Positions 2-54,480 of a stretch of DNA of 64,000 nt are shown here, piece by piece. The notes beneath the pieces are model-generated. The model was not told where the DNA came from and did not search any database. It was given only the letters and a program-made list of their open reading frames with translations. The stretch is from Eubacteriales bacterium (GTDB lineage Bacteria; Bacillota; Clostridia; Oscillospirales; CAG-272), in NCBI GenBank assembly GCA_045577925.1, contig JAZNJH010000025.1, forward strand, positions 36,307 through 100,306. The letters are read 5' to 3'. Every line of letters begins with the position of its first letter. Within the stretch, counting starts at the first letter, position 1. The position numbers and the translations under genes were made by a program.

Positions 2-3000
2 CAGGCAAATGACACAATCGTTTTTTGTGACGATGTGAACGAAAACGTAACGATTGACAAGAATATCACACTTGACGGTGCTGATAAGCAGTACACCGGT
101 ACGATGACTATTTCCGACAACAAGACGGTTACGATTGCTAACGTAAATTTTGTAAAGGGATCGATCACCGAAGAAAAGGGTACACACGGAAAATTGACAA
201 TCACGAACTGCGATTTCGATGACAGTGACAAGTCAACAAATTATGCAATTACCGTTCGCGGTAGTGATAATGTCGTTATCGAGGACTGCACTGCAACGGG
301 TTATAACTACGGTATGCTTTACATTCCTTCATCTGTAGCTAATATTAGCGTGAAGAATGTTGAAGTAATTAATTCTACTGTAGCATTCAACATTTCATAC
401 TCCGGCGACGGCAGATTTGAAAATGTAGAGCTGACCAATGTTACGTACGGTCTCCATGTTCAAAATTATGGAGCAAGAACATTTACACTGACCGGATGTG
501 AATTTGATTGCGGTTCTCCTGTATACGTTCAGAAAAAAGGAACGGCTTATGTTACCTTCAAGTTTGAGGGTAACAACGACTTCGGTACAGAAGAATTTAC
601 AGATCCCCTCAATGAATACGCAATACTTAAACTTGCCAATGCTGATGCAACTCTCACTGCTTGCTCAGATCTCAACGTAACGACAGATGTTGAAGGTGGA
701 GTTGTTGAGTATGTCGATGACACATACAGTGTGAAATGCCTGAAGGGTCAGGGTACACAGGAGAAACCTTACCTGATCGAAAACCTGAACGATCTGATCT
801 TTTTCCGTAACAATGTTAATGCAGGCAACACATACGAAGGCAAATATGTTCTTCTTACATCTGACATCGACCTCAAAGGTTACAAAGAAACTAATATAAA
901 TCACGAAGGAAACAACGTTTCTTCTTCTACCTTCAGACCTATTGCTGACAAGGCCAGCGGTGTTGCCTTTAAGGGTACATTTGACGGCGGTGATCACACA
1001 ATTTCTAACCTTTACATAAGCGGTTGGGATATCAATTACCATTGGGATAGTTACGGCCAGGCAGCTCTTTTTGGTACAATTGAAAATGCAACTGTCATGA
1101 ACTTAACTGTAGAAGGCTTTGAAATTCAGGTTGAAGGCGGAGACGTTGCTGCTATTGCAGGTCATGCTAAAGGCGAGTGTACATTTGAAAACATTACTGT
1201 TACAGACAGTAAGATCGCAACCTATAACAACGGTTGTGCAGGTATTGTTGCATGGACAGAAGACGGCGACTATACCTTCAAAAACATCAATATTACTGAT
1301 TCGGTAGTTCTTGCCGGTCTTTGGGGTTCATTCGACTCTTCTATCGGCGGTGTTGTTTCACAGGCTGAACCCGGCGCTGCCTATAATTTCGAAAACGTAG
1401 ATATTGCTTGCCGTCTGGATGTTTATAATGACTGCACAGCTTCCTACGACTACTATAATTACCGTATGTGCGGTATGATCATCGGCCGTCTGGAAGAAAC
1501 TATAACTGTTGACGGAAAAGCATATCCGGATATGTCCAAGTATGACATTACTTGTAAAGATGTTACTGTCACTATGGGCGAGTGGGCAAACTATCACTAC
1601 TGCGAGCCTACTCCCGGATATAATAATGGACGCGGTATGCGTGTCGAGCCCGGTTATGCATATGACGGACTGCCTGCGGATTATGACCACAGCCAATGCA
1701 CAACCAATCATATGACGGTTATGCCATTCACTTCACTCTTCGGCGGTAAGCAGTTAGGTGTAGCGGGTAATACTAAAGAAGACCTTGCAAAGCTCGGCTT
1801 CTTTGACGGTGAAAAGAATAAAGAAGAAGATATAGTAGTAATTGACTATTCACTCCCTGCAAGATCAGTAGCTGAAGTTGAAGGCGAATATTTTGACGAT
1901 CTTCAGAAAGCAATCGATGCAGCAGAAGATGGTGACACAATTACAGTAATTAATGATATTGAAAATGCACAAAATGTCACAATTACCAACAAAACTGTAA
2001 TTATCGACCTTGACGGACACACCGTTAACGGTACAATATTACCTTCAACAGGCGATATTACAATCAAGAACGGTTCAATAGTAAGCAAGAATACTGATAA
2101 TTCCGCTATTGAAATAAACAGCGGTAAGCTTACTCTTACTGACGTAAACATCGAAGGCGCACGTCATGCAGTAAGAATTGACGGTGCTGTTGAGGCGGTT
2201 ATTGACGGCGGTGAATACAAGTTAATTCCTACTGCAGGAAAAACACAGCATGCATTTAATATTTCAGGTGCAGCTAACGTTACATTCGTAGACGGTACGT
2301 TTACAGGGCCTAAAGGAACCTCTGCAGACAGCGGTGCTGCAGTAAACGTACAGTCCGGTGCAACAGCTACAATTCTTGGCGGTACGTATACAGGCGGTAA
2401 GGTTAATACCCTGGCTAACAAGGGTACTCTTACAATTTCCGGCGGTACGTTTGACCAGGATCCGACAGCCTACGTTGCAGAAGGTGCACGTGCTATTGAA
2501 GACAAGGGTAACGGCTATTGGGTAGTTCTCCCTGCAGGCGTTCACAGTATCGAGCTTTCAGTTGACAATTCTGAAAAAACATATTACTTTGAAGATACTA
2601 TCACACTCGACGTTACCGTAAACGGCGGAGCTTACGCTGTATCCGACTGGACTCTTACGTATGATACTGAAAAGCTTGAATACATCGGTACAGTTCAGCT
2701 CGACGGCGACTCAAAAGCTCCCGTTGTTAATGAAACAAGCGGCACAATAACCGAAGAAAACTACAGTAACAAAATCGGTGGCGACCTCTTCGCTGACGGC
2801 TCTAAGGTTACTTACACATTCAAGGTCAAAGCGCCTGTGGAAGATACAACTGCTCTCTTTAAGATCACTGCAGCTACCGTTGATACGGTATTGACAAGTG
2901 CTTACGGAAAGACTGATGTAAATACTCCTGAGCTGACTGTAAACATCAAGCTCAGAGAAATCGTTGAAATCACAAAGGCAGATAACGGTACTGAATTTAC

Positions 3001-3949
3001 CGACGAGCCTTACGTATTCACACACGATGAAAAAGACCACGTGATCACAGTTGATGCAGAAGATATTGACGGCGAAACGATCACATATAAGTTAGACGGC
3101 ACATCTGTTGACGAAGTTAAGATCAATGCTGCCGGAACCTATGTGGTTGAATACACCATCACAAAGGCAGGATACGATACTGTAACAGATACTATCACTA
3201 TCACAGTAGAAGAGGCTGAATTTACAAACGTTATCGTTAAGGACGGAGATGATACTACCATAACCGTCGATCCTTACAACTTCGCATTTGATAACACAGA
3301 CCACGTTATCACAATTGATGCAGATGGTGTTGATGGCGAAAGCATAGTATATACCCTTAACGGCGAAGAAGTGGCTGCGATAAGCCTCAAGGCTGTTGGA
3401 ACTTACGAGATCGGATACACGATAACGAAGGACAGCTACACAACTTACACAGGTACACTCAAAGTTGTTATCACAAATCCCGAATTTGTTATTGAAACAA
3501 GCGTTTACACACTTAACGACCATACTCTCGTAATGCTTTATACAACTGCTGACGGTATGTATCCTAAGCTTGGATCAGACGCAATGTTTGATATCACAGC
3601 AGCAGGATATGAATACCAAGAAAACGAAGACTCGACACCTGTTCCCTACGCTAAGGTATACGGTATAGTTCTTCCCAAGGCAGAGGCAGCCGATCTTGAA
3701 GCTCTCAGAGCATCGATCACATTCTCAACCAAGAAGCCGTTCGTAATCGATCCTTACGATAATGACGTAACGTTTGACTCTCAGGTTAACTCAAGAGATA
3801 TCGTTATTGCAGTTAACGTTTACAACGATTATGAAGACATTCACGGCAAATACGATATGATGAGCAGAATACTCAAATCTGACGTAACCGGCGACAAGAA
3901 GGTTGATATTGCTGACGTTACAGCTATCGAAGCTGAAATATACGGCTGA
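2..3949 (+). CDS. Very large secreted surface protein, 5' end cut by window edge: parallel beta-helix / GLUG-type N-terminal region, internal cohesin-like module, two tandem ~85-aa repeats, C-terminal dockerin-like module
   Basis: The reading frame stays open from position 2, with no stop upstream of the listed GTG at 35. Beta-helix-like turns repeat in the N-terminus (NVTIDKNITLDG, VTIANVNFVKG, LTITNCDF, VVIEDCTATG, ISVKNVEVINS, FENVELTNV). A GLUG-type segment FKGTFDGGDHTISNLYISG is present. The cohesin-like block is SIELSVDNSEKTYYFEDTITLDVTVNG...WTLTYDTEKLEYIG. The C-terminus has duplicated Ca-binding dockerin-like segments DVTFDSQVNSRDIVIAVNVY and DVTGDKKVDIADVTAIEAEI. Confidence 0.85.
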   Translation, partial: QANDTIVFCDDVNENVTIDKNITLDGADKQYTGTMTISDNKTVTIANVNFVKGSITEEKGTHGKLTITNCDFDDSDKSTNYAITVRGSDNVVIEDCTATGYNYGMLYIPSSVANISVKNVEVINSTVAFNISYSGDGRFENVELTNVTYGLHVQNYGARTFTLTGCEFDCGSPVYVQKKGTAYVTFKFEGNNDFGTEEFTDPLNEYAILKLANADATLTACSDLNVTTDVEGGVVEYVDDTYSVKCLKGQGTQEKPYLIENLNDLIFFRNNVNAGNTYEGKYVLLTSDIDLKGYKETNINHEGNNVSSSTFRPIADKASGVAFKGTFDGGDHTISNLYISGWDINYHWDSYGQAALFGTIENATVMNLTVEGFEIQVEGGDVAAIAGHAKGECTFENITVTDSKIATYNNGCAGIVAWTEDGDYTFKNINITDSVVLAGLWGSFDSSIGGVVSQAEPGAAYNFENVDIACRLDVYNDCTASYDYYNYRMCGMIIGRLEETITVDGKAYPDMSKYDITCKDVTVTMGEWANYHYCEPTPGYNNGRGMRVEPGYAYDGLPADYDHSQCTTNHMTVMPFTSLFGGKQLGVAGNTKEDLAKLGFFDGEKNKEEDIVVIDYSLPARSVAEVEGEYFDDLQKAIDAAEDGDTITVINDIENAQNVTITNKTVIIDLDGHTVNGTILPSTGDITIKNGSIVSKNTDNSAIEINSGKLTLTDVNIEGARHAVRIDGAVEAVIDGGEYKLIPTAGKTQHAFNISGAANVTFVDGTFTGPKGTSADSGAAVNVQSGATATILGGTYTGGKVNTLANKGTLTISGGTFDQDPTAYVAEGARAIEDKGNGYWVVLPAGVHSIELSVDNSEKTYYFEDTITLDVTVNGGAYAVSDWTLTYDTEKLEYIGTVQLDGDSKAPVVNETSGTITEENYSNKIGGDLFADGSKVTYTFKVKAPVEDTTALFKITAATVDTVLTSAYGKTDVNTPELTVNIKLREIVEITKADNGTEFTDEPYVFTHDEKDHVITVDAEDIDGETITYKLDGTSVDEVKINAAGTYVVEYTITKAGYDTVTDTITITVEEAEFTNVIVKDGDDTTITVDPYNFAFDNTDHVITIDADGVDGESIVYTLNGEEVAAISLKAVGTYEIGYTITKDSYTTYTGTLKVVITNPEFVIETSVYTLNDHTLVMLYTTADGMYPKLGSDAMFDITAAGYEYQENEDSTPVPYAKVYGIVLPKAEAADLEALRASITFSTKKPFVIDPYDNDVTFDSQVNSRDIVIAVNVYNDYEDIHGKYDMMSRILKSDVTGDKKVDIADVTAIEAEIYG

Positions 3950-4035: not shown

Positions 4036-5994
4036 ATGAAAAAAGTATTATCGGTATTCCTCGCACTTGCTATGCTGTTTTCCCTGCCCGTTACTGTGTT
4101 TGCGGCATCTTCGACAGACACCCAGCTTGAGCACCGTCTGACGTGTAATGACGAAACACTTTACAAGGCAGAGCCCGGAGAGGTAATTACCGTTACCCTT
4201 TCTCTGGAAAACAAAACTGCAGACAAAGGATTTACCATTAAAAACTTTCAGACAGAAATATATTACGACACAGACTTTTTTGAGTACGTGGGTGATATAG
4301 CTATTGATTCTGCAAGTGCAAATTCCAACTGGAACACCCAGGAAACCCTTCACCACAGTGAAAGACGCGTTTGTCTTAATATAATTACAGATACAAGTGC
4401 TATGATCGAGTGTGAGAGCTCTCACAAGATCGCTACCTTTAAGCTTAAAGTAAAGGATAGTGCGCTTGAAGGCTCGCAGGGCTCTGTAAAGTGCCGTATG
4501 GACGACGTTTACGCATTCGGTCCCGACTATAAGGAATACGGCGAAAGCTCTGTTCCTCTTACGGTCGTTGTAGAAAATGAAGAAGAACCCGAAAGCTATA
4601 CGATCACGTATATGAACGACGGCAAGACTTTTGAAACAGCAACTGCAACTCCCGACACGGTGATAACTAAAGCACCCGAGAATAAAAACAAGAGATTTCT
4701 CGGTTGGGAAGATGAAAACGGCAAACTCTGGCAGCCTGACGAAGTATATACGGCAACAAAGGATACTGTATTTACAGCAAAATGGGGCGAGCTGCTTCCG
4801 CCTGCATCATACACGCTAACGTTCGTTACCAACGGCGGCAGTTCGGTAGCTCCCGTTACCAAAACAAGCGGGACAGTATTAAATCTTGCTAACTACACTA
4901 CCGAACGCACAGGCTACACCTTTGACGGTTGGTATGACAGCGCTAACCTTGCTAACAAGCTTACAAGCATTACTCTGACATCAAATACAACGGTCTATGC
5001 CGGATGGATAAAAAAGTCTGTTGATGATGACGATGACAAGCCAAGTTCAGGCGGCGCGTCCACAGGCTCTACGAGATATACCCTTACCTTTGAAACAAAT
5101 GGAGGTTCTGATATCAAGAACGTTAAAAAGGTCAAGAACACGATCGTTGATCTCTCAAAATATATCCCCGAAAAGGACGGATACGTTTTTGACGGCTGGT
5201 ATACAGACAAGGCTCTGACAAACAAGGTTGACAAGATCCAGATAAAATCAAACGTCAAGCTTTATGCCAAGTGGAGTGAAGGCGAGTCCGAAGAAAAAAT
5301 CAAGCCCAATTACAAACCAGATATTCTTACAGACGAGCATTACGCTTACATTCAGGGACGTAATGACGGTATGATTCATCCCACGGCAAATCTTACGAGA
5401 GCCGAGGCGGCTACAATATTCTTCCGCCTGCTTGACGACGATATACGCCGCGGAGAAATGACAAGCACAAATTCATTTGCTGACGTTAACGAGAGTGACT
5501 GGTTCAATACGGCAGTTTCTACCCTTGCAAGTCTTGAAATATTAAATGGCAGATCATCCGACACGTTTGCTCCCAACGATCCGATAACACGAGCAGAGTT
5601 TACAACGATCGTAGCAAGACTTTCCGAGGCAGAATATAACGGCAAAAACCTCTTTACAGATATAGACGGTCACTGGGCTGAAAATTATATCAACATAGCC
5701 GCGTCAATCGGATGGGTAAACGGCCACGACGGTCTTTTCAGACCTGACGACAACATTACCCGTGCTGAAGTTATGACTCTTGTTAACCGCGTGCTCAACC
5801 GTGTTCCCGAAACTGTTGACGATCTTCTTGATAATATGACCAGGTGGGCAGACAACAGTGATGTTAATGCATGGTATTACATAGCGGTTCAGGAAGCGAC
5901 CAACAGTCATGAATACGCTATGAAAGACGGCGGCACTTTTGAAAAATGGACAAAGCTTGTTAAGAATCCCGACTGGTCAAAATTTGAAAACTGA
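4036..5994 (+). CDS. Cell-surface anchoring (scaffoldin-like) protein: signal peptide, cohesin-like module, three Flg_new (Listeria-Bacteroides) repeats, three SLH repeats
   Basis: RBS GAGAGGA precedes the ATG. Signal peptide MKKVLSVFLALAMLFSLPVTVFA. Cohesin-like block AEPGEVITVTLSLENKTADKGFTIKNFQTEIYYDTDFFEYVG. Repeats of the form YTLTF.TNGGS...GY.FDGWY...LYA.W. SLH repeats FADVNESDWF...ITRAEF and FTDIDGHWAENYI...ITRAEV. Confidence 0.88.
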   Translation: MKKVLSVFLALAMLFSLPVTVFAASSTDTQLEHRLTCNDETLYKAEPGEVITVTLSLENKTADKGFTIKNFQTEIYYDTDFFEYVGDIAIDSASANSNWNTQETLHHSERRVCLNIITDTSAMIECESSHKIATFKLKVKDSALEGSQGSVKCRMDDVYAFGPDYKEYGESSVPLTVVVENEEEPESYTITYMNDGKTFETATATPDTVITKAPENKNKRFLGWEDENGKLWQPDEVYTATKDTVFTAKWGELLPPASYTLTFVTNGGSSVAPVTKTSGTVLNLANYTTERTGYTFDGWYDSANLANKLTSITLTSNTTVYAGWIKKSVDDDDDKPSSGGASTGSTRYTLTFETNGGSDIKNVKKVKNTIVDLSKYIPEKDGYVFDGWYTDKALTNKVDKIQIKSNVKLYAKWSEGESEEKIKPNYKPDILTDEHYAYIQGRNDGMIHPTANLTRAEAATIFFRLLDDDIRRGEMTSTNSFADVNESDWFNTAVSTLASLEILNGRSSDTFAPNDPITRAEFTTIVARLSEAEYNGKNLFTDIDGHWAENYINIAASIGWVNGHDGLFRPDDNITRAEVMTLVNRVLNRVPETVDDLLDNMTRWADNSDVNAWYYIAVQEATNSHEYAMKDGGTFEKWTKLVKNPDWSKFEN

Positions 5995-20854: not shown

Positions 20855-22357
20855 TTAAAACATCTTGTTTATTTCTGTGATAGTTTCTCTTGTAAGAATG
20901 TCGCCGCCTGCGTGGCCTATCTTACCGCTTGATACGTAAGCGCTGTAATGGCCCGCCTTTTCTGCCTTTTCTGTGGGAAGGTAGCCATCCTTGCCGCAGC
21001 AAAGCTGTACGATAAAGGTCTGCTTTGCATAGCTTCTTGCCTTTATTCTGTTTCCATAGTCAAGGAAAAGCTCGAATGGGTTTGTTGCTATCGCAATATC
21101 GCCAAGACGGATTATATGAGTTTCAACCGTATGTATTTCCTTGTTCTGCTGTTCACGGTATCTTGAAATAGTACCTGCGTATACGTGCATGCGTGCAGTA
21201 TCTTCAAAGTTGAATACGTCCTTATGAGAATTCTGTGCAATATAGTATTCAAGCTCACGGACCGCGTTGTTGTAATCAGCCATCGTGACCTTTCTGAAAG
21301 GAAGGTCGAGATCTATGATCTTATGCTCAAATATCGCCTCGTCCTTATACTCGTTTATCTCTTCATATACGGATATAATTTCGTTTGCAATTCTCTTTCC
21401 CACTCTGTTGCAGCCCGAAATATCGTACATGGACGGGTCCGCTTTATGCTCTATAACGTTCGGGCGCTTTACGTTGGGGTCGTCAATCGGAGTTTCCGGC
21501 TCTACCCAGCGAATAAGGTCTCTCGGGCACTGGTCACCTGCCGCTCCGCAAAGGCTGAGAAGGTATACATCTTCACCGAGCTTTTCTCTCAGTATTGCCT
21601 TTGTTCTGCCCCAATAGTCACCTGAAATGAAGCTTCTCTGTTCAAGGATCTGGGCAGGACATGCAATATTTGCAACAACACCTGTAAGCTTTTTGTTCTT
21701 GTCAAAAGTATAAAGAAGCTCAATACCCGAGTCGTTACCGCCCTCGAGTGCGACAAAGTTTGCGGTGTTGGTATCACCCCACATCTGTGCGCTTCCGTCG
21801 TCATAGCTGACACGGCGGCACATACCTACTGCTGCTCTGCCGAACTCGTTTGTATACAGTGCTTCAGTACGGTTTTTCCATGCATTATATGCCGCAAGAG
21901 CAATTTTATCCGTGATCAGCTCTCCGCCCTCTTCAGGGGTAAGAACGTCGTCGCTCGGCGTTACTGCCTCACCGTATTTCTTACCCTCGGGAAGAAATTC
22001 TTCGAGTATCGAAACAACACCCGCAAATGAGCGTGCGCTCGTTTCGTCCTTCTTCTTTGCCGTCATTTTTATAGACGTATGAGAATGCGTTGCGCCAACC
22101 ATTATTTTTCTCGGGTCAACCTCGTCTGTTAAACGAGCAAATTTCTCTCTTGCAATTTCAAGGAGCTCTTCATCAAGTGCTTCTACATCGGCCGACATCA
22201 GTATCATCTGATCTCCATCCGCTTCAACTGCCATTGCAGTTACAGTTATATCAGACTCAACGTAGTCGGATATTCTTTCAAAAAACTGACCTTCAAGGCT
22301 AACCTTTTTTTCGGGCACAAGGCTTTCCTCAGCCCAACCTATAAGTAACTTTCCCAT
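20855..22357 (-). CDS. Neutral/alkaline-ceramidase-like hydrolase family protein (uncertain)
   Basis: Start moved to ATG 22357, after AGGAGA. MGKLLIGWAEESLVP...MVGATHSHTS resembles the ceramidase_alk N-terminal pattern. Confidence 0.45.
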   Translation of the reverse strand: MGKLLIGWAEESLVPEKKVSLEGQFFERISDYVESDITVTAMAVEADGDQMILMSADVEALDEELLEIAREKFARLTDEVDPRKIMVGATHSHTSIKMTAKKKDETSARSFAGVVSILEEFLPEGKKYGEAVTPSDDVLTPEEGGELITDKIALAAYNAWKNRTEALYTNEFGRAAVGMCRRVSYDDGSAQMWGDTNTANFVALEGGNDSGIELLYTFDKNKKLTGVVANIACPAQILEQRSFISGDYWGRTKAILREKLGEDVYLLSLCGAAGDQCPRDLIRWVEPETPIDDPNVKRPNVIEHKADPSMYDISGCNRVGKRIANEIISVYEEINEYKDEAIFEHKIIDLDLPFRKVTMADYNNAVRELEYYIAQNSHKDVFNFEDTARMHVYAGTISRYREQQNKEIHTVETHIIRLGDIAIATNPFELFLDYGNRIKARSYAKQTFIVQLCCGKDGYLPTEKAEKAGHYSAYVSSGKIGHAGGDILTRETITEINKMF

Positions 22358-22483
22358 TTTTATTTCTCCTGCAAAAACAAAATTACAAACATATACATTA
22401 ATTATAAATTCAATAACAAATAAAATCAATAGTTTTCGAAAATTTCTTAAATAAAAACGCCGCGAAGCGTTTTCCTTTTTTGT

Positions 22484-46492: not shown

Positions 46493-46987
46493 TTAACCGT
46501 TGAATCTTGCGCTGATCGCAGCATCCTTTTCTCTTACCTTGTCTGCAGCTGCCTTGCGTGCCGCATCAAGCTTATCTGCAAGCGAAGCATCTGCCGTTGC
46601 AAGTATCTGTATTGCCAACAGTGCCGCGTTAACAGCGCCGTCGATAGCAACGGTTGCAACAGGTATGCCGGAAGGCATCTGTACTGTGGCAAGGAGCGCG
46701 TCAACGCCGTCAAGGTTTGTTGCTCTTACAGGAAGACCTATAACGGGCAGCGTTGTATTTGCCGCCATAGCTCCTGCTAAATGCGCAGCCTTACCTGCCG
46801 CTGCTATAATTACTCCTATGTTATTCTCTTTTGCGCCGCGTGCAAACTCTGCCGCTTCAACAGGAGTTCTGTGTGCGCTGAGTACACGCACTTCGAAACC
46901 AACTCCGTATTCTTTAAGTGTATCAATAGCCTTTTCCACGATATTAAGATCGCTGTCGCTACCCATAACAATTCCGACTTTTTTCAT
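46493..46987 (-). CDS. purE: 5-(carboxyamino)imidazole ribonucleotide mutase
   Basis: Start moved to ATG 46987 ([14 protein letters not shown]), after GGAGGG. SAHRTP motif. Confidence 0.92.
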
Positions 46988-47012
46988 AATTCCCTCCGTT
47001 TTGCCGTGACGG

Positions 47013-47063
47013 CACAAAATAAAAAAGGACACACCTACCCCATAAAACGGAATACGGCTGCCC
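47013..47063 (-). terminator. Riboswitch-controlled intrinsic terminator (expression platform)
   Basis: On the minus strand, GGGCAGCCGUAUUCCG-UUUUA-UGGGGUAGGUGUGUCC forms 13 of 16 pairs, then UUUUUUAUUUU. Its 5' arm overlaps the conserved CUGGGCA of the aptamer. Confidence 0.55.
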
Positions 47064-47856: not shown

Positions 47857-47885
47857 AAAAGGCACCCCAACGGGTGCCTTTGTTT
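47857..47885. terminator. Bidirectional terminator
   Basis: AAAA-GGCACCC-caac-GGGTGCC-TTTGTTT. Confidence 0.8.
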
Positions 47886-50106
47886 ATTTCTTCACCATGT
47901 CACGCTGAGCCATAACGAGAGAATAGTATATACCCTCTTTTTGCATAAGCTCATCGTGTGTACCCATCTCTGCAATGGTCCCACGGTCTATCACTATGAG
48001 TCTTGTTGCGTTTCGAAGGGTCGAAAGCCTGTGCGCTATTGCAAAAGTCGTGCGGTTTTTAACGAGATTTGCAAGTGCATCCTGCACTCTGCGCTCGGTT
48101 TCGGTATCAAGCGATGCCGTTGCCTCGTCAAGTATCAGTATCTTAGGATCTCGCAAAAGCGCTCTCGCTATTGCCACTCTCTGCCTCTCACCGCCCGAGA
48201 GGGTATATCCCCTCTCACCAACCTTGGTATTGTACGCTTCCGGAAGCTTCATTATAAATGAATGAGCCCCTGCCGCCTTTGATGCAGCTATTACTTCTTT
48301 GTAGCTCGCATCGGGCTTTGCGTATGCAATATTCTCATATACCGATCCCGTGAACAGAAACGTCTCCTGAAGCACTGCGCCTATCTGACTTTTGTATGAG
48401 TGCTGAGTCATTTCTCTTATGTCAACACCGTCAACCTTGATACAGCCGGAGCTTGGATCATACATTCTCATAATAAGATTTATAAGTGTAGATTTACCCG
48501 CTCCCGAACGTCCGACAATTCCTATCATTTCGCCGGGTTTTACAGTCAGGTTTATACCCCGCAGCACCTCTTTGGTATCATCATACCCGAAGCAGAGATT
48601 TGATATCTCCACCTCGCCTTTTATATTGTTGAGTTTTGCATCGGGCGTGTCCTTCATATCCTCATCTTCATCAAGAAGCTCAAAAAGCTTGCCGATGTGA
48701 CCGAGGAAGCTTACTATAAGCTTAGGCAAAAACGCAAAATGAACAAGCGGAGAATATATTATTGAAATGTACGAGGAAAACATCGCCATCTCTCCAAGAG
48801 TCATCGCACCCTGAAGGATTTTGTTACCCGCAAAATAAAGTATGAAAAATTCACCAAGTCCCGCAATAAAGTTCAGAGGATGAATCACAAGAGGCCATAT
48901 GGTCTCGTTTTTTATCATAACGTCCCTGTATTGTTTTGCAGCCTTATCGTATCTTTCAAACTCACTTTTTTCCGTTCCGTAAGACTTGACTACACGTATA
49001 CCCGAATATATGTCGTGAAGTATGCTGCTGCATTGCGCCCCCTTCTCTCTCTGTTTTATCCAGATAGCTCCCGTAGGCTCTTTTATAGCATAGAAGAGGA
49101 ATACGATAACCGGTATTGTTGCAAGCACAACAAGCGCAAGCTTTACATCATAAATGAAAAGGAAAACGCCGGCAGCCACAAGCTTGAGGGTATGCTCCAT
49201 ATAGTTGGGCAGATGCTCTGTAAGCGTCCACTGTATTTCAGTAACCTCGTTATTTATTCGTCTGAACAGATCACCCGAATCATACTTCCCGCTTTTTGAA
49301 ATAGAGAGAGACTGTACCTTATCAAAAGTAAGCGTTGCAAGCTTTGTTTGAATTCCGAGTCCTGCACTGCTGCTGAAATAACGTCTTAGTACCGACAATA
49401 AATTCAGTATTATCTGTACGACTATCATTGAAAGTATAACGAGAGCAAATCCCACATAAGACACACTTCCCGCTTCACTTTTTATATAGTCGTCAACAAG
49501 TATTTTGTTTACATAAGGAATCAGAAGTGATACAAGAGATATGACTATAAGTGTAAGTGACGTTGCAATTATGTAAAAGCGGAATTCTTTCGATATATTG
49601 AGAGTGCGGAGAACAAGCTTCATTGAGCTTGAGCATTTCGGGCATCTCTCTTCACCTGCTTTGAGAATTCTGCCGCAGTTTTGGCACTTTCTCTCTTTTG
49701 TATGCTTTTTCTCTGTTTCTTCTTCGTTCTCATCAGTGTTATCGGAATTAAGCATCTCATTACATCTGCGTGCAGTTTTTGTATAAAGCTTTGAGTCACG
49801 CATATCAGAACGGCAAAGTATCGTGGTCTCACCGTCACATTTACACTCTAAAAATACACATCCGCTTTCATTTACAGCACGAATATCCGACACACGTTCG
49901 CTTTCTATAAAGCGTATATCACCATCTTCGCTTACTACAAGTATTCCCTCTTTACAAAAGCCGATTATCCCCCCCTTTGGCAGAGAAAACGGGCATATTT
50001 CAAAAAAGTCATACTTTTCTGCTTCAGTGTAAATTGAAACGAGCTTTTTGGCAAGGCTTTTTTTATCCTGCCTCTCTTCTCTTATCTTCTGGTACTTTTT
50101 TTTCAT
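47884..50106 (-). CDS. ABC exporter half-transporter (TMD-NBD) with extra N-terminal cytoplasmic domain and CxxC-x10-CxxC zinc ribbon
   Basis: Zinc ribbon CQNCGRILKAGEERCPKC sits just before TM1. Walker [45 protein letters not shown]. Confidence 0.88.
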   Translation of the reverse strand: MKKKYQKIREERQDKKSLAKKLVSIYTEAEKYDFFEICPFSLPKGGIIGFCKEGILVVSEDGDIRFIESERVSDIRAVNESGCVFLECKCDGETTILCRSDMRDSKLYTKTARRCNEMLNSDNTDENEEETEKKHTKERKCQNCGRILKAGEERCPKCSSSMKLVLRTLNISKEFRFYIIATSLTLIVISLVSLLIPYVNKILVDDYIKSEAGSVSYVGFALVILSMIVVQIILNLLSVLRRYFSSSAGLGIQTKLATLTFDKVQSLSISKSGKYDSGDLFRRINNEVTEIQWTLTEHLPNYMEHTLKLVAAGVFLFIYDVKLALVVLATIPVIVFLFYAIKEPTGAIWIKQREKGAQCSSILHDIYSGIRVVKSYGTEKSEFERYDKAAKQYRDVMIKNETIWPLVIHPLNFIAGLGEFFILYFAGNKILQGAMTLGEMAMFSSYISIIYSPLVHFAFLPKLIVSFLGHIGKLFELLDEDEDMKDTPDAKLNNIKGEVEISNLCFGYDDTKEVLRGINLTVKPGEMIGIVGRSGAGKSTLINLIMRMYDPSSGCIKVDGVDIREMTQHSYKSQIGAVLQETFLFTGSVYENIAYAKPDASYKEVIAASKAAGAHSFIMKLPEAYNTKVGERGYTLSGGERQRVAIARALLRDPKILILDEATASLDTETERRVQDALANLVKNRTTFAIAHRLSTLRNATRLIVIDRGTIAEMGTHDELMQKEGIYYSLVMAQRDMVKK

Positions 50107-50120
50107 AAAAGTTTATCCTT

Positions 50121-50666
50121 TTATATGTACATTTCAAGCTTTTTGCGGCTTTTCTTATCAAGTGCCTCTACAGAATCAATGTAGTACCTGTTACCATCAA
50201 CATCAATTATAACTATCCTGTCCTCACCTATCCGTATAATGCTTCTGTAAACGTCACGAAGCGGGATATCTATTTCTCCACAGTCACATTGTACCGAGAA
50301 ATACGCATATCCGAGTTTTTCCTTAACAGACTTTATTTTAAGAATGTGCGCCGAATAATATACCCTTTCAAGCTCTTCTCTTATAAGAGCAATTTCAGAC
50401 TCAGGATATACTGCAATATCTTCTATAAGGCCTATTTCATTTAGATCCTCGTCAAGCACGGAAATATAATTTTCGCTTGAAGTAAACGGAAAAGCTCGTC
50501 TGAGTTTGACTCTTTCATAGTGGCTCTTGCGGTCAATATCAAGTGCGCTTTCCCTTAAAAGAGATGTGTCGCAGGTTATATCAAGTCCAAGGAAATCAGA
50601 GCATTTTACAAAATGAGTAAACTCAGGCGTCAGATAAACCACCGTATTGTTAGTTTTTATATCCAT
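50121..50666 (-). CDS. DUF1854-like protein (181 aa)
   Basis: Start moved to ATG 50666, after AAGGAGA; this removes the overlap with the upstream ABC gene. The pattern LRRAFPFTSSENYISVLDEDLNEIGLIEDI...VIIDVDGNRYYIDSVEALDKKSRKKLE resembles the DUF1854 family. Confidence 0.65.
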   Translation of the reverse strand: MDIKTNNTVVYLTPEFTHFVKCSDFLGLDITCDTSLLRESALDIDRKSHYERVKLRRAFPFTSSENYISVLDEDLNEIGLIEDIAVYPESEIALIREELERVYYSAHILKIKSVKEKLGYAYFSVQCDCGEIDIPLRDVYRSIIRIGEDRIVIIDVDGNRYYIDSVEALDKKSRKKLEMYI

Positions 50667-50679
50667 AACACTATCTCCT

Positions 50680-53028
50680 TTAAATACGTGCGCCTGCAGG
50701 TCTTCTGCGATGGCTCCCCTGTCCGTCCGGACTTTTTTCGTGATCACTTTCATCACCGGTGTCATTTATTATATTGCGCAGAGCCTCAAGCTGAAGTGTA
50801 TAAAGCTTGTGATATATTCCCTCTTTCTCAAGAAGCTCGGTATGAGTACCCGCCTCATAAAGCTTGCCGTTTTCTATTACTATAAGGCTGTCAGCACTCT
50901 TAAGTGTCGACAGTCTGTGAGCTATCATAATAGTAGTACAGCTACCCGAGAGCTTTTCAATCGCATTTTCTATTTTCTGCTCGGTTGCCGTATCCATAGC
51001 TGCGGTAGCTTCATCAAGTATAAGTATCTTAGGCTTTTTAAGCAGAGCACGGGCAATGGATATTCTCTGCCTTTCACCGCCAGAAAGGTCCTTGTGTCCG
51101 TGTCCTATACGTGTTTCATATGCATCGGGAAGCCGCATGATAAAATCATGCGCACCCGCCTGTATTGCTGCTTCTACTACCTCTTCGTGCGTTGCATTTT
51201 TCATTGAATAAGCAATATTTTCTGCGATCGTGCCCGAAAAAAGATATGTCTCCTGTGAAACTATTGCAACACTGTCACGCAGCTGTTTAAAGGACATCTC
51301 ACGTACGTTCACCCCGTCAATAAGTATTTCGCCGTCAGTCGTATCATACAAGCGTGTCAGCAGGTTCACTATCGTCGATTTTCCTGCACCCGTACGTCCC
51401 ACTATGCCAAGAGTCTTTCCGGCTTCGATCTTGAACGAAATACAGTCTATTGTCTTTTTTGCCTTCGTATAGGAGAAAGATACGTTTTTAAACTCTATTT
51501 CTCCCTTTACATTTTCAATATGTACGGGATTTTTCGGTTCAACTACGTCAGGTATAGCATCTGATATTTCAAAAAGGCGGGATGCTGCATTAAAGCACTC
51601 GCTCATTCTGTTTACCGAATTTATTATATAGTTAAGCGGATTATACACAAGCCCCATATAAGAAACGAAGGTAAGAAGGTCACCGTAAGACATTTCTCCT
51701 CTGATTACACTCAGACCGCCAACAGCCCATACCGCAACAGTACCAAGGTAAAGAACAAAGCTTATAGCCGGAAAGACAACAGCCGCATACATATCGCGAT
51801 CACGCTTCGACTTCATTTTACCATAGCTTAAATTCTTGAATTCACAGCTTTCATCAGCTTCTTTTGCAAACACCTTTACAATTCTGAGCCCCGAAAGAAC
51901 GTCTGTAAGCTTGCCGTTTAACGCCCTTGACTTTATAAAAAATACTCTCCAGAAGCGTCTGTTTCTTTTGAATGCCCTCGTTACCATAAGAACATACACC
52001 GGAACGATTATAACGGTTATCAGCGCAAGCAGGGGATTCATCATAAGCATTACAATGATTATGGCAAATATCTTTACAAAAGCCACAACAAGATGCGGCA
52101 CCATTTCACTGAAAAAGCTGTAAAGGGTATTGGAATCAGACTCTATCTGAGTCATAAGTCCGCCCGTACGGCGTGAATTAAAAAATGAAAGTGAGAGTCT
52201 GTTTATCGCCTCAAATATCATATTCTTCAAATCGTAAACGATATTTGCAGATATTCTGGCAGTTACTATGTCATTTAAAATTGTAACGGCGAAGCTAACA
52301 AGCCTCATCGCTATAAGAAGCGATATCACGAGTGTTACCATACCGTAAAACTCGCCGCCCTCGGTTAGCACCTTATCAATGTAAAACGAGTTGCCGAGAT
52401 AGGGCGTAATTACACCAACTGCACTTATAAGCCCCATAAGAGCAAGTATTGTAAGCATCTCTTTCATATACCTTTTGAAAAAAGGAATAAATCTTTTTAC
52501 AACACCCGATTTATCCGCACAGTACGGGCATATCATGTTTGAGTCGGGAAAACGTCTGCCGCAGTCCGGGCAAAGCGCTTCCTTGTCCGACTCGTCAACA
52601 CCGTCAAATTCCCCGCTTTGAATAAGCCTTAAGTACCCTGCAAAAAGAGAAAGCGGTTCTTTAAAGGTGTTGGATGTTTCACATATAAGCACACTTCTTT
52701 CGTCCATAAGGCGTATGCTCAGACGTACACCCGATATGAGCTCCTCAATATCAAAACTTTTAATATTACAGATCCTATAAGAAAAAAATCCCGTTTCTGT
52801 GAAAGTCTTCTCTGCGCCATTATCAAGCGCACTTACACCCTCAAGTATTACCAGGGCATCTTCATCGGCAAAAAGATAAATATTGCCGGCACCGGGCATA
52901 TTGCCCCTGCACGACAAGCCGATGAGCATTTCACTAACGGGAACACCTTTATTATTTTCTATGTAACCAAGCACCTCGCCCGGTATGTTTACAAGCATAT
53001 CCATATTATTACCAAAATCTTTCCACAC
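50680..53028 (-). CDS. ABC exporter half-transporter (TMD-NBD) with extra N-terminal cytoplasmic domain and CxxC-x10-CxxC zinc ribbon
   Basis: Zinc ribbon CPDCGRRFPDSNMICPYC sits before TM1. GRTGAGKST, LSGGERQRISIARAL, ILILDEATAAMD, MIAHRLST. The start is uncertain: GTG 53028 has AGGGG about 10 nt upstream, and ATGs at 53004 and 52998 are alternatives. Confidence 0.85.
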   Translation of the reverse strand: MWKDFGNNMDMLVNIPGEVLGYIENNKGVPVSEMLIGLSCRGNMPGAGNIYLFADEDALVILEGVSALDNGAEKTFTETGFFSYRICNIKSFDIEELISGVRLSIRLMDERSVLICETSNTFKEPLSLFAGYLRLIQSGEFDGVDESDKEALCPDCGRRFPDSNMICPYCADKSGVVKRFIPFFKRYMKEMLTILALMGLISAVGVITPYLGNSFYIDKVLTEGGEFYGMVTLVISLLIAMRLVSFAVTILNDIVTARISANIVYDLKNMIFEAINRLSLSFFNSRRTGGLMTQIESDSNTLYSFFSEMVPHLVVAFVKIFAIIIVMLMMNPLLALITVIIVPVYVLMVTRAFKRNRRFWRVFFIKSRALNGKLTDVLSGLRIVKVFAKEADESCEFKNLSYGKMKSKRDRDMYAAVVFPAISFVLYLGTVAVWAVGGLSVIRGEMSYGDLLTFVSYMGLVYNPLNYIINSVNRMSECFNAASRLFEISDAIPDVVEPKNPVHIENVKGEIEFKNVSFSYTKAKKTIDCISFKIEAGKTLGIVGRTGAGKSTIVNLLTRLYDTTDGEILIDGVNVREMSFKQLRDSVAIVSQETYLFSGTIAENIAYSMKNATHEEVVEAAIQAGAHDFIMRLPDAYETRIGHGHKDLSGGERQRISIARALLKKPKILILDEATAAMDTATEQKIENAIEKLSGSCTTIMIAHRLSTLKSADSLIVIENGKLYEAGTHTELLEKEGIYHKLYTLQLEALRNIINDTGDESDHEKSPDGQGSHRRRPAGARI

Positions 53029-53125
53029 GGCAGACCGCCCCTGTTTGTAAACTACACTTCCTATAATATATTAACATGAGTGAACGCTCACATTGTTAAC
53101 AAAATGTGAACTTTCGCCTGTTTTG

Positions 53126-53154
53126 TTGAAAGATTGAAAAAAATGTGTTAGAAT
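53126..53154 (+). promoter_or_regulatory. Promoter of the pheST T-box leader
   Basis: TTGAAA (53126-53131), 17 nt, TAGAAT (53149-53154), preceded by a TGT extended -10. Confidence 0.55.
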
Positions 53155-53160
53155 GTCTAC

Positions 53161-53420
53161 GTATGTTTATTAAATGCACTGACGGAGACGGCAATCACGC
53201 AATCAGTACATATCAGAGATGAGAATCACAGGCTGAAAGTTCTCATGTACCGTGTGAGCGCATTTCACTCCCGAGCATGCAGAGTCAACGCTTTTCGCCA
53301 AGCTCTGTACGGCTTGTCACCGTTATATGACTAAAAGAGTCCGCTTTGGCGGAAATTAAGGTGGTACCGCGGAGGTCGTTTGGCCGTCGTCCTTTTTGGG
53401 ACGGCGGATTTTTTATTTTA
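53161..53420 (+). promoter_or_regulatory. T-box riboswitch leader, Phe specifier (UUC)
   Basis: T-box sequence AAUUAAGGUGGUACCGCGG at 53354-53373. AG bulge AUCAGAGA and distal loop GGCUGAAAG are present. Specifier UUC at 53264-53266 is followed by A at the 3' end of the specifier loop. The terminator is CCGUCGUCC-UUUUU-GGGACGGCGG plus AUUUUUUAUUUU (53383-53419). Confidence 0.88.
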
Positions 53421-53463: not shown

Positions 53464-54480
53464 ATGAAAACAAAACTCGAAGAAATCAAGCTCGCGGCAA
53501 AGGCAGCGCTTGATGCAGAAGACTGCGACACCGAACAGGTGAGAATCCAGTATCTCGGCAAAAAAGGAGAGCTTACGGCGCTTCTCCGCTCGATGGGCTC
53601 GCTTTCACCCGAAGAGCGCCCGATAATGGGTCAGCTTGCAAATGAAGTTCGTGCCTACATTGAAGAGGCAATAGCCGCAAAAAAGAGCGAAGAGGGAGCA
53701 AAGGCTCTTGAAAAGAAGCTTCGCGAAGAAAGAATAGACGTAACGCTTCCCTCAAAGAAGCCGTCTGTTGGCGCGCGCCATCCGCTTGCTATCACACAGC
53801 GCAAGCTTGAAAACATATTCCAAACTATGGGATTTGACATTGTTCACGGCCCTGAAGTAGAATACGACTATTACAATTTCAAGGCACTCAATATTCCCGA
53901 AAATCACCCTGCACGTGACACGCAGGATACCTTCTATATCACGGATAATATACTGCTTCGTTCTCAGACCTCGCCCGTTCAGGCGCGCGTTATGGAAAAG
54001 CAGAAGCCACCGATAAGAATCATCTCTCCCGGACGCGTTTACCGCTCCGATGCTGTTGACGCAACTCACTCTCCCATGTTCCATCAGCTTGAGGGACTCG
54101 TTATTGATAAGAATATCACCATGAGCGACCTTAAGGGAACGCTTGACACGTTTGCAAAAACCATGTTCGGCGAAGAAACGAGCGTGCGTTTCCGTCCTCA
54201 CCACTTCCCGTTTACCGAGCCGTCAGCCGAGGTTGACGTTTCCTGCTTCGTATGTAAGGGCAAGGGCTGCCGTCTTTGCAAGGGCGAGGGTTGGATAGAG
54301 ATCCTCGGAGCAGGTATGGTACACCCCAACGTGCTCAGAATTTGCGGAATTGATCCCGAAGAATACTCAGGCTTTGCTTTCGGTATGGGTATTGAGCGTA
54401 TAGTTATGATCAAGTATGGTATTGACGATATGCGCTACCTTTACGAAAACGACGTAAGATTCTTAAAGCAGTTCTCTTAA
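53464..54480 (+). CDS. pheS: Phenylalanine-tRNA ligase alpha subunit
   Basis: Start moved to ATG 53464 (MKTKLEEIK), downstream of the T-box terminator. Motifs [25 protein letters not shown] and GMGIERI. Confidence 0.95.

Follow-up and report, generated by a model that had tools for sequence, protein, structure and literature searches.

We analysed a 64,000-nt stretch of contig JAZNJH010000025.1 from a Eubacteriales bacterium (assembly GCA_045577925.1; hereafter the window, meaning the whole stretch, with all coordinates given as positions in it) and focused on an operon of three minus-strand open reading frames (ORFs), in which two ATP-binding cassette (ABC) half-transporter genes, ABC-A and ABC-B, flank a gene for a small protein of the DUF1854 family (Table 1). 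The tight packing described in the original prediction, with gaps of 13-14 nt, was verified in the DNA, where 13 nt separate the ABC-A stop codon (50680-50682) from the ATG of the DUF1854 gene at 50666 and 14 nt separate the DUF1854 stop codon (50121-50123) from the ATG of ABC-B at 50106. Both gaps contain a ribosome-binding site (RBS), with AAAGGAG preceding the first of these ATG codons and AAGGA the second. As mechanically listed, the middle ORF spans 50121..50765, and the start at ATG 50666 with its AAAGGAG Shine-Dalgarno sequence was preferred. The surroundings also proved to be those first described, an operon between a phosphoesterase gene and pheST, as we found a Metallophos_2 gene on one side and a divergent pheS behind a T-box leader on the other, and the accompanying claim that no substrate gene lies nearby was borne out.

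Table 1. Positions of the operon, its domains and the adjoining elements in the window.
Feature	Position	Strand	Basis
ABC-A half-transporter gene (PH-like module, zinc ribbon, type IV transmembrane domain, nucleotide-binding domain)	50680..53028	-	ORF; PF00664 and PF00005
ABC-A PH-like module, cytosolic, ~residues 1-135 of the 774-aa form	52600..53004	-	Homology to the B module; collinear alignment
ABC-A zinc ribbon CPDCGRRFPDSNMICPYC	52519..52572	-	Translation; kept in 12/12 A-type orthologs; weak Pfam zinc-ribbon matches
DUF1854 gene, 181 aa, soluble	50121..50666	-	PF08909; RBS; AlphaFold2 model; no hydrophobic segment
ABC-B half-transporter gene, 740 aa (PH-like module, zinc ribbon, type IV transmembrane domain, nucleotide-binding domain)	47884..50106	-	ORF; Pfam; orthologs
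ABC-B N-terminal module (helices 2-31; PH-like core of 7 strands, 34-101, and helix 102-125)	49729..50106	-	AlphaFold2 model; Foldseek
ABC-B zinc ribbon CQNCGRILKAGEERCPKC	49633..49686	-	Translation; conservation in 95 sequences; AlphaFold2 model
Hairpin, GC-rich, T/A runs on either side	47858..47881	both	Terminator scan and sequence
Operon upstream region	53029..53169	-	~140 nt remaining beside the pheS T-box leader
T-box leader RF00230	53170-53397	+	89.4 bits, E=2.9e-20; slightly under the Rfam gathering score of 93

Evaluating the transporter core, we found PF00664 (ABC_membrane) followed by PF00005 (ABC_tran) on one chain in both ABC proteins (Pfam E ~1e-34 to 1e-37 per domain), which are paralogous half-transporters of the ABCB type, with the type IV fold. 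A motif scan recovered canonical Walker A, Q-loop, LSGGE, ILILDE (Walker B with the catalytic Glu), D-loop and IAHR motifs in ABC-A and ABC-B alike, bearing out the earlier claim of complete nucleotide-binding domain (NBD) motifs in both, and judged by these motifs neither ATP site is degenerate and two catalytically competent sites are predicted. The same motifs are complete, by regular-expression (regex) scan, in 12 A-type orthologs, 12 of 13 B-type orthologs and 2 orthologs of a single-ABC type described below, the exception being the B protein of one locus (L009), where neither the Q-loop nor the signature was matched by the regex. ABC-B has more than 100 orthologs, 716-796 aa in length, and one NCBI protein (P0117) is 100% identical to it. 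Both proteins carry ~175-180 soluble residues ahead of the first transmembrane segment (TM1), with the first hydrophobic segment starting at residue 183 in ABC-A and residue 178 in ABC-B, in keeping with the 150-190 extra residues originally estimated.

Both of these N-terminal extensions end in a CxxC-x10-CxxC motif, and translation of the two genes confirmed the identical spacing reported for the zinc ribbons. Across a 95-sequence ABC-B ortholog alignment, C141, C144, C155 and C158 are each at least 90% conserved, and all four cysteines are present in 27 of the 27 partner ABC proteins inspected (A-type, B-type and single-type), including two from distant phyla, Latescibacterota among them. 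Because the ribbon cysteines are kept in every partner inspected, their retention points to selection and not chance. The Pfam zinc-ribbon matches of the window proteins lie below the gathering score, and we read the motif in both ABC proteins as a C4 zinc ribbon, that is, as a predicted metal site.

Ahead of the ribbons, profile-profile comparison indicates that the N-terminal modules of ABC-A and ABC-B are homologous over the whole extension, with an hhalign probability of 98.4% (E=7.5e-15) when the zinc ribbon is included and 94% (E=1.2e-7) for the pre-ribbon part of A against the 95-sequence B profile. Pairwise BLASTP of the two extensions aligned only the zinc ribbons (E=3e-4). The AlphaFold2 model of ABC-B residues 1-175 (m778c77856c93, built from the 95-sequence alignment) has a mean predicted local distance difference test score (pLDDT) of 89.5, reaching ~95 over residues 1-120, and opens with three short helices, which are succeeded by seven strands (34-101) and one long helix (102-125); the chain then passes through a disordered linker of acidic character (127-135) and the zinc ribbon to a helix (161-173) that runs into TM1. 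Comparing this model with the PDB by Foldseek, we found that the top 50 matches were all PH, PTB, FERM-F3 or GRAM domains (probability 0.90-1.0, mostly 1.0; E 1e-3 to 1e-2; target-normalised template modelling (TM) score up to 0.57). These matches include Sin1 PH, MTMR6 GRAM-PH, FERM F3, PTB and GRK2 PH, and further ones are Rtt106, SSRP1/Spt16 and TFIIH p62.

The PH-like character first proposed for these modules is thus supported for ABC-B by the model and its structural matches, and matches elsewhere in the family agree with it, as 2 of 31 related N-terminal modules match Pfam bPH_3 (PF14470; best E=9.1e-5) and one matches PH. The likeness to the bPH_3/PH superfold lies in a seven-strand sandwich with a C-terminal helix, found with Foldseek probability 1.0 to many structures; the differences are that the window modules match no PH model of Pfam (none at E up to 10, with sub-threshold zinc-ribbon matches being the only ones to these N-termini) and that, on the same chain, a zinc ribbon and an ABC exporter follow them. 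From 1.84 billion representative proteins, a search with the B N-terminus retrieved only 31 matches (E up to 1e-3), and the N-terminal domain therefore appears to evolve fast. A word-indexed protein search with the 175-aa B N-terminus (49582-50106, minus strand) gave no match, for which a short-query limitation is suspected; the full-length query worked, and full-length orthologs in that same database have N-termini that are 40-85% identical. Sequence searches of the PDB, whether with the DUF1854 profile or with the N-terminal ones, returned nothing meaningful.

Within the ABC-B module we also observed a motif, G-[C/S/T]...L-[C/S]-R-x-D at residues 82-99 (~49810-49863, minus strand), that shows strong conservation among B-type and single-type partners, with G82 invariant and R99 at least 90% conserved, the Arg being mostly lost from A-type modules. 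This pattern suggests functional divergence between the PH-like domain of ABC-A and that of ABC-B in the heterodimer, and the conserved basic residue R99 may contact an acidic ligand or partner.

The middle gene encodes, as first recognised, a 181-aa soluble protein of the DUF1854 type, as its product scores 119.3 bits on PF08909, whose gathering score is 26.8 (E=1.3e-34, with positions 1-129 of the 130 in the profile aligned), and lacks any hydrophobic segment. Its AlphaFold2 model (30 sequences; pLDDT 90.3) consists of two beta-rich modules with a helix after each, namely strands 9-83 with helix 89-103 and strands 106-163 with helix 171-178, and the N-terminal and C-terminal halves show a weak likeness to each other (E=1.5e-3, probability 16%), which may reflect an internal duplication. 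Foldseek against the PDB gave nothing significant for this model (best E=0.037, TM-score <0.25), the matches being tandem OB/HIN, Tudor and small designed barrel structures, with a PH domain only at rank 17 (probability 0.54). To judge from the model, the protein looks like two small beta-barrel-type modules and not like a clear PH domain.

The original prediction further suggested that this free protein might share a common origin with the N-terminal modules, which our comparisons did not support. BLASTP of each N-terminal module against DUF1854 found nothing, and hhalign gave E values of 0.05-0.9 over the A and B profiles, whole proteins and halves, and local and global alignment, so homology between DUF1854 and the modules is not supported at the sequence-profile level. 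The strand-turn-strand segment said to recur in all three proteins accordingly survives in two of them: the segments ISGVRLSIRLMDERSVLICETSN and ESGCVFLECKCDGETTILCRSD of A and B align together in hhalign and correspond to the two final strands of the modelled domain, whereas the proposed DUF1854 counterpart has no statistical support.

To place the operon in a wider genomic context, we sampled loci from the DUF1854 side and from the ABC-B side, the narrow DUF1854 alignment giving 6 close loci. Relatives of the DUF1854 protein numbered 85, mostly from metagenome-assembled genomes (MAGs) of Clostridia/Eubacteriales, and in 17 related loci the DUF1854 gene adjoins one or more ABC genes. The full ABC-A / DUF1854 / ABC-B triad was seen in 15 clostridial loci, and the linkage of the three genes is in this sense conserved. 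The closest locus (L001, from the Oscillospiraceae MAG SIG674, at 95% identity) has the same order of pheS, triad, phosphoesterase and purE, and its orthologs are labelled by NCBI as 'ABC transporter ATP-binding protein' and 'DUF1854 domain-containing protein'. All close loci possess the triad (L001 and L003-L006, with L002 cut by a contig end yet consistent), as do six loci (L007-L012) in which the identity of the DUF1854 protein drops to 40-50% and two reached through the ABC-B search (L015 and L016). Neighbouring genes vary by locus and include aminoacyl-tRNA synthetases, ribosomal proteins with secE/nusG, secA, ddl/murI, spoIVA and others, so that only the triad is conserved among neighbours, in core-genome, housekeeping contexts. 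Several related loci have genes whose start and stop codons overlap (by 20 nt and 4 nt in L007, 1 nt in L010 and 4 nt in L014), as expected for the subunits of one complex.

In three distant loci (L013, L014 from a Latescibacterota MAG, and the JGI contig of P0084), a single ABC gene is paired with a DUF1854 gene at ~30% identity. These single-type pairs resemble the triad in having an ABC protein of ~770 aa whose N-terminus is PH-like and carries the CxxC-x10-CxxC motif, a DUF1854 gene immediately downstream that overlaps at times, and no cphA nearby; they differ in being homodimeric and in a DUF1854 protein that is sometimes shorter (137 aa). Since the single form occurs in distant phyla and the pair was seen only in Clostridia, we infer that duplication turned a homodimeric form into the heterodimeric pair. 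A tblastn search of single-type DUF1854 against plasmids found no match. Near the triad of one locus (L015, 713-3792, minus strand) we also noticed a BrxC/BrxD-like ATPase and a TerB_N/TerB_C protein beside a DEAD/ResIII helicase, a cluster that may be a defence island and whose genes are not conserved beside the triad elsewhere. A PADLOC search of the operon proteins found no defence system, with generic NBD similarity only to mads_3 and mads_8 and DUF1854 without a match.

Turning to catalogued families, the best NCBIfam models for the three proteins were NF052233 ('cyanophycin metabolism-associated ABC transporter', 766 positions) and NF052234 ('cyanophycin metabolism-associated DUF1854 family protein'). 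On ABC-B, residues 75-738 align to NF052233 profile positions 80-747, and the single-type partners align from profile position 15, across the whole N-terminal region, with 664-667 bits, under the cut-off. As the profile itself spans the N-terminal region, the PH/zinc-ribbon extension is a hallmark of the whole family and not a peculiarity of the window. The pairing of DUF1854 with ABC genes is also noted by Pfam, and cofitness with cphA/cphA' has been reported in Acidovorax and Cupriavidus for a DUF1854 gene and the ABC gene beside it (Price et al., bioRxiv 10.1101/072470), in a study that also notes occasional DUF1854-ABC fusions and suggests that DUF1854 serves as a subunit in the export of an amino-acid polymer. 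The original prediction had stated that no assigned function was known for this architecture, which overstated its novelty in that Pfam, Price et al. and the two NCBIfam models already cover the DUF1854-ABC pairing; the fusion of a PH-like domain and a zinc ribbon to an ABC exporter, for its part, was described nowhere in the literature that we searched. Within that literature, only Price et al. dealt with DUF1854/PF08909, and no relevant paper on cyanophycin export was found. The system is thus a member of a catalogued, genetically flagged and biochemically uncharacterised exporter family, to which we add a description of the PH-like and zinc-ribbon architecture and a heterodimeric clostridial variant uncoupled from cphA.

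Our preferred reading, held with moderate confidence, is that the operon encodes a three-subunit heterodimeric ABCB-type exporter of this DUF1854-associated ABC family, in which DUF1854 and the PH-like domains handle a hydrophilic cargo. DUF1854 would be a stoichiometric cytosolic subunit docked at the cytoplasmic face, on the PH/zinc-ribbon modules or on the NBDs, plausibly, if we may speculate, with one of its beta modules per half-transporter. Together with the flexibly tethered PH-like domains, it would recruit or gate a cytoplasmic hydrophilic substrate for ATP-driven export, and the zinc ribbons would hold the assembly in place at the entrance next to the membrane. A gated exporter with a soluble plug or adaptor, offered as an example in the original prediction, is likewise a putative arrangement. 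Peptide export provides a precedent for PH-domain proteins that are needed in addition to an ABC transporter (PMC8657885). Judged from the beta-proteobacterial relatives, which show cofitness with cphA/cphA', the cargo would most likely be an amino-acid-based polymer, a peptide or an envelope component, and in Clostridia it would not be tied to a neighbouring cyanophycin synthetase.

Several points weigh against this reading. The window proteins do not reach the equivalog cut-offs of the two models, with ABC-A and ABC-B at 501.4 and 525.0 bits against 880 for NF052233 and DUF1854 at 72.1 bits against 150 for NF052234. A cyanophycin synthetase-like gene was found neither among the large ORFs of the window nor within 8-10 kb in the 11 related loci that have gene tables, and a study of cyanophycin states that no export process for it is known (PMC9974463). 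The ABC-A module is supported as PH-like through its homology to ABC-B only, and the role proposed for DUF1854 derives from gene context only, because its model found no significant structural match. Lastly, the direction of transport is one that we infer, since the type IV fold occurs in importers too.

Some of these points bear just as directly on a closer reading of the model names, in which the operon would be a true ortholog of the 'cyanophycin metabolism-associated' exporter and would export or otherwise handle cyanophycin or a CphA'-type polymer, the product of a cphA gene at some other site in the genome. The ranking of NF052233 and NF052234 as best NCBIfam matches for all three proteins, the N-terminal architecture shared with the NF052233 family and the cofitness with cphA/cphA' in two beta-proteobacteria all speak for such orthology, and we nevertheless judge it quite unlikely given scores far under the equivalog cut-offs, the lack of cphA in the window's large ORFs and in the neighbourhoods examined, the literature statement on cyanophycin export, and a clostridial form that is heterodimeric and sits in housekeeping contexts. 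Compared directly, the beta-proteobacterial cphA/cphA' clusters in which the NF052233/NF052234 systems lie have the same two protein families, the same N-terminal PH-like domain with zinc ribbon and a DUF1854 gene beside the ABC gene, but they have one homodimeric ABC protein and an adjacent cphA, whereas here two paralogous halves flank DUF1854, the hosts are Clostridia (Oscillospiraceae), the neighbours are housekeeping genes and no cphA is adjacent. Because the scores are sub-threshold, no cphA is nearby and the context is one of housekeeping genes, the cyanophycin link of the proteobacterial relatives is not transferable to the clostridial form on present evidence.

The next-best NCBIfam models, MsbA (TIGR02203) and MsbA-related ones, raise another candidate, a general lipid or drug exporter of the MsbA/Bmr type in which the PH-like/zinc-ribbon modules and DUF1854 would have a regulatory task, tuning the ATPase in response to a sensed cytosolic signal or membrane lipid, and would not dock substrate. 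The bit scores for MsbA itself, 416.9 and 406.6, fall short of the cut-off of 602, a dedicated soluble subunit strictly co-inherited across phyla would be unusual in multidrug pumps, and no regulator or sensor gene is linked to the operon. A constitutive envelope function would suit the housekeeping genomic context, and both halves of the regulatory idea have parallels: PH folds often bind lipids or serve as regulatory scaffolds, and small cytosolic subunits that regulate ABC ATPases exist, such as MlaB in MlaFEDB, which binds the ATPase side and modulates activity. MlaB has a STAS fold, from which DUF1854 differs, and an analogous role for DUF1854 is only proposed. Weighing both sides, we consider a regulated lipid or drug exporter unlikely.

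The position of the N-terminal modules invites comparison with half-transporters of the type IV fold that likewise have a soluble domain before TM1, placed where it could encounter cargo on the cytoplasmic side, with PCAT1/HlyB carrying a C39 or C39-like domain (CLD) and IrtAB a siderophore-interaction domain. The folds are papain-like or flavin-reductase there, whereas here they are PH-like with a zinc ribbon and are accompanied by a free DUF1854 protein. One could then view the operon as a peptide or bacteriocin exporter whose PH-like domains replace a C39/CLD docking domain, given that they occupy the position held by that domain in PCAT/HlyB-type exporters and that HlyB and NHLP-type models are among the general NCBIfam ABC matches. 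A functional parallel exists in the enterocin DD14 system, where the PH-domain proteins DdE/DdF are required along with the ABC transporter DdHIJ for export of a leaderless bacteriocin (PMC8657885), so that PH-fold modules are there genetically required, beside an ABC transporter, for export of a cytoplasmic product. DdE/DdF are separate membrane proteins of another PH family (bPH_2, YdbS/YdbT) located beside bacteriocin genes, in contrast to the fused modules here, which have no peptide genes nearby. We regard a peptide exporter of this kind as very unlikely, as Peptidase_C39 matched neither the full ABC proteins nor their isolated N-termini, no precursor-peptide, immunity or modification genes stand beside the operon, and related loci have only housekeeping neighbours, none of them conserved.

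Architecture by itself also leaves the direction of transport unfixed, and IrtA is an exporter-fold importer with an N-terminal cytosolic accessory domain, so the operon could in principle encode a type IV-fold importer like IrtAB or YbtPQ whose cytosolic N-terminal domains and DUF1854 process or receive an imported compound. We hold this to be highly improbable: siderophore, reductase or binding-protein genes are not linked to the operon, the genetics of the relatives indicate efflux of an internally made polymer, and the N-terminal fold is PH-like and not that of a flavin reductase.

Extending our preferred reading of a three-subunit exporter beyond the Clostridia, one may picture an ancient, cross-phylum class of three-part exporters in which two PH-like domains, with a two-module DUF1854 as the bridge between them, form a cytosolic cap that selects a hydrophilic polymer or peptide and feeds it to the transporter, and in which the clostridial heterodimer would serve a constitutive, cyanophycin-independent function, for example export of an envelope or matrix component. 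We put this forward tentatively, as a possibility that is doubtful on balance.

DUF1854-linked ABC exporters are widespread, with more than 100 clostridial orthologs and representatives in other phyla and in beta-proteobacteria, and cofitness with cphA/cphA' was the sole functional clue to them in the literature searched. To this we add a PH-like domain and zinc ribbon before TM1 in every partner ABC protein and a cphA-uncoupled heterodimeric form belonging to the core genome of Clostridia from gut and rumen, which suggests that the 'cyanophycin-associated' label does not fit the whole family. The triad also offers a concrete three-chain target for the structural biology of ABC transporters. 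If the PH/DUF1854 cap docks cargo, it would represent a new solution to substrate recruitment by ABC exporters, parallel to C39/CLD domains; if it does not, the system would be one more accessory-decorated ABC exporter.

With respect to the ends of the operon, ABC-A measures 782 aa from GTG 53028 and 774 aa from ATG 53004, and because ortholog alignments begin only at residue 8-9 of the 782-aa GTG form, the true start is probably ATG 53004. The GTG also has an AGGGG, 9 nt upstream. At the other end, the hairpin lies between the ABC-B stop (47884) and the end of the Metallophos_2 gene (47852) and looks like a shared bidirectional intrinsic terminator that would end both the operon and the convergent Metallophos_2 gene. 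Upstream of ABC-A, only ~140 nt are available for an operon promoter because the rest of the intergenic space is taken by the divergent pheS T-box leader; scanning this region, we found no minus-strand site and no convincing sigma-70 match, and the count of sigma-70-like sites region-wide was not above that in shuffled sequence.

Among other features of the window, a terminator-like hairpin (53384-53407) accompanies the pheS T-box leader. The mechanically listed pheS start, TTG 53380, falls within that leader and is doubted for this reason, the start probably being an ATG near 53464 (MKTKLEEIK...). A ZMP/ZTP riboswitch (RF01750; 47053-47133, minus strand; 48.4 bits against a gathering score of 39) lies directly upstream of the purE ORF (46493..47032, minus strand) and heads a leftward purine operon of purE, a purF-like gene, purM and FGAM synthase. 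Two long ORFs, at 35-3949 (plus strand, 1304 aa) and 20855-22429 (minus strand, 524 aa), matched no Pfam family at E up to 1e-5; the first of these, which lies ahead of a protein that combines Flg_new repeats with SLH domains (4036-5994), may encode another cell-surface protein.

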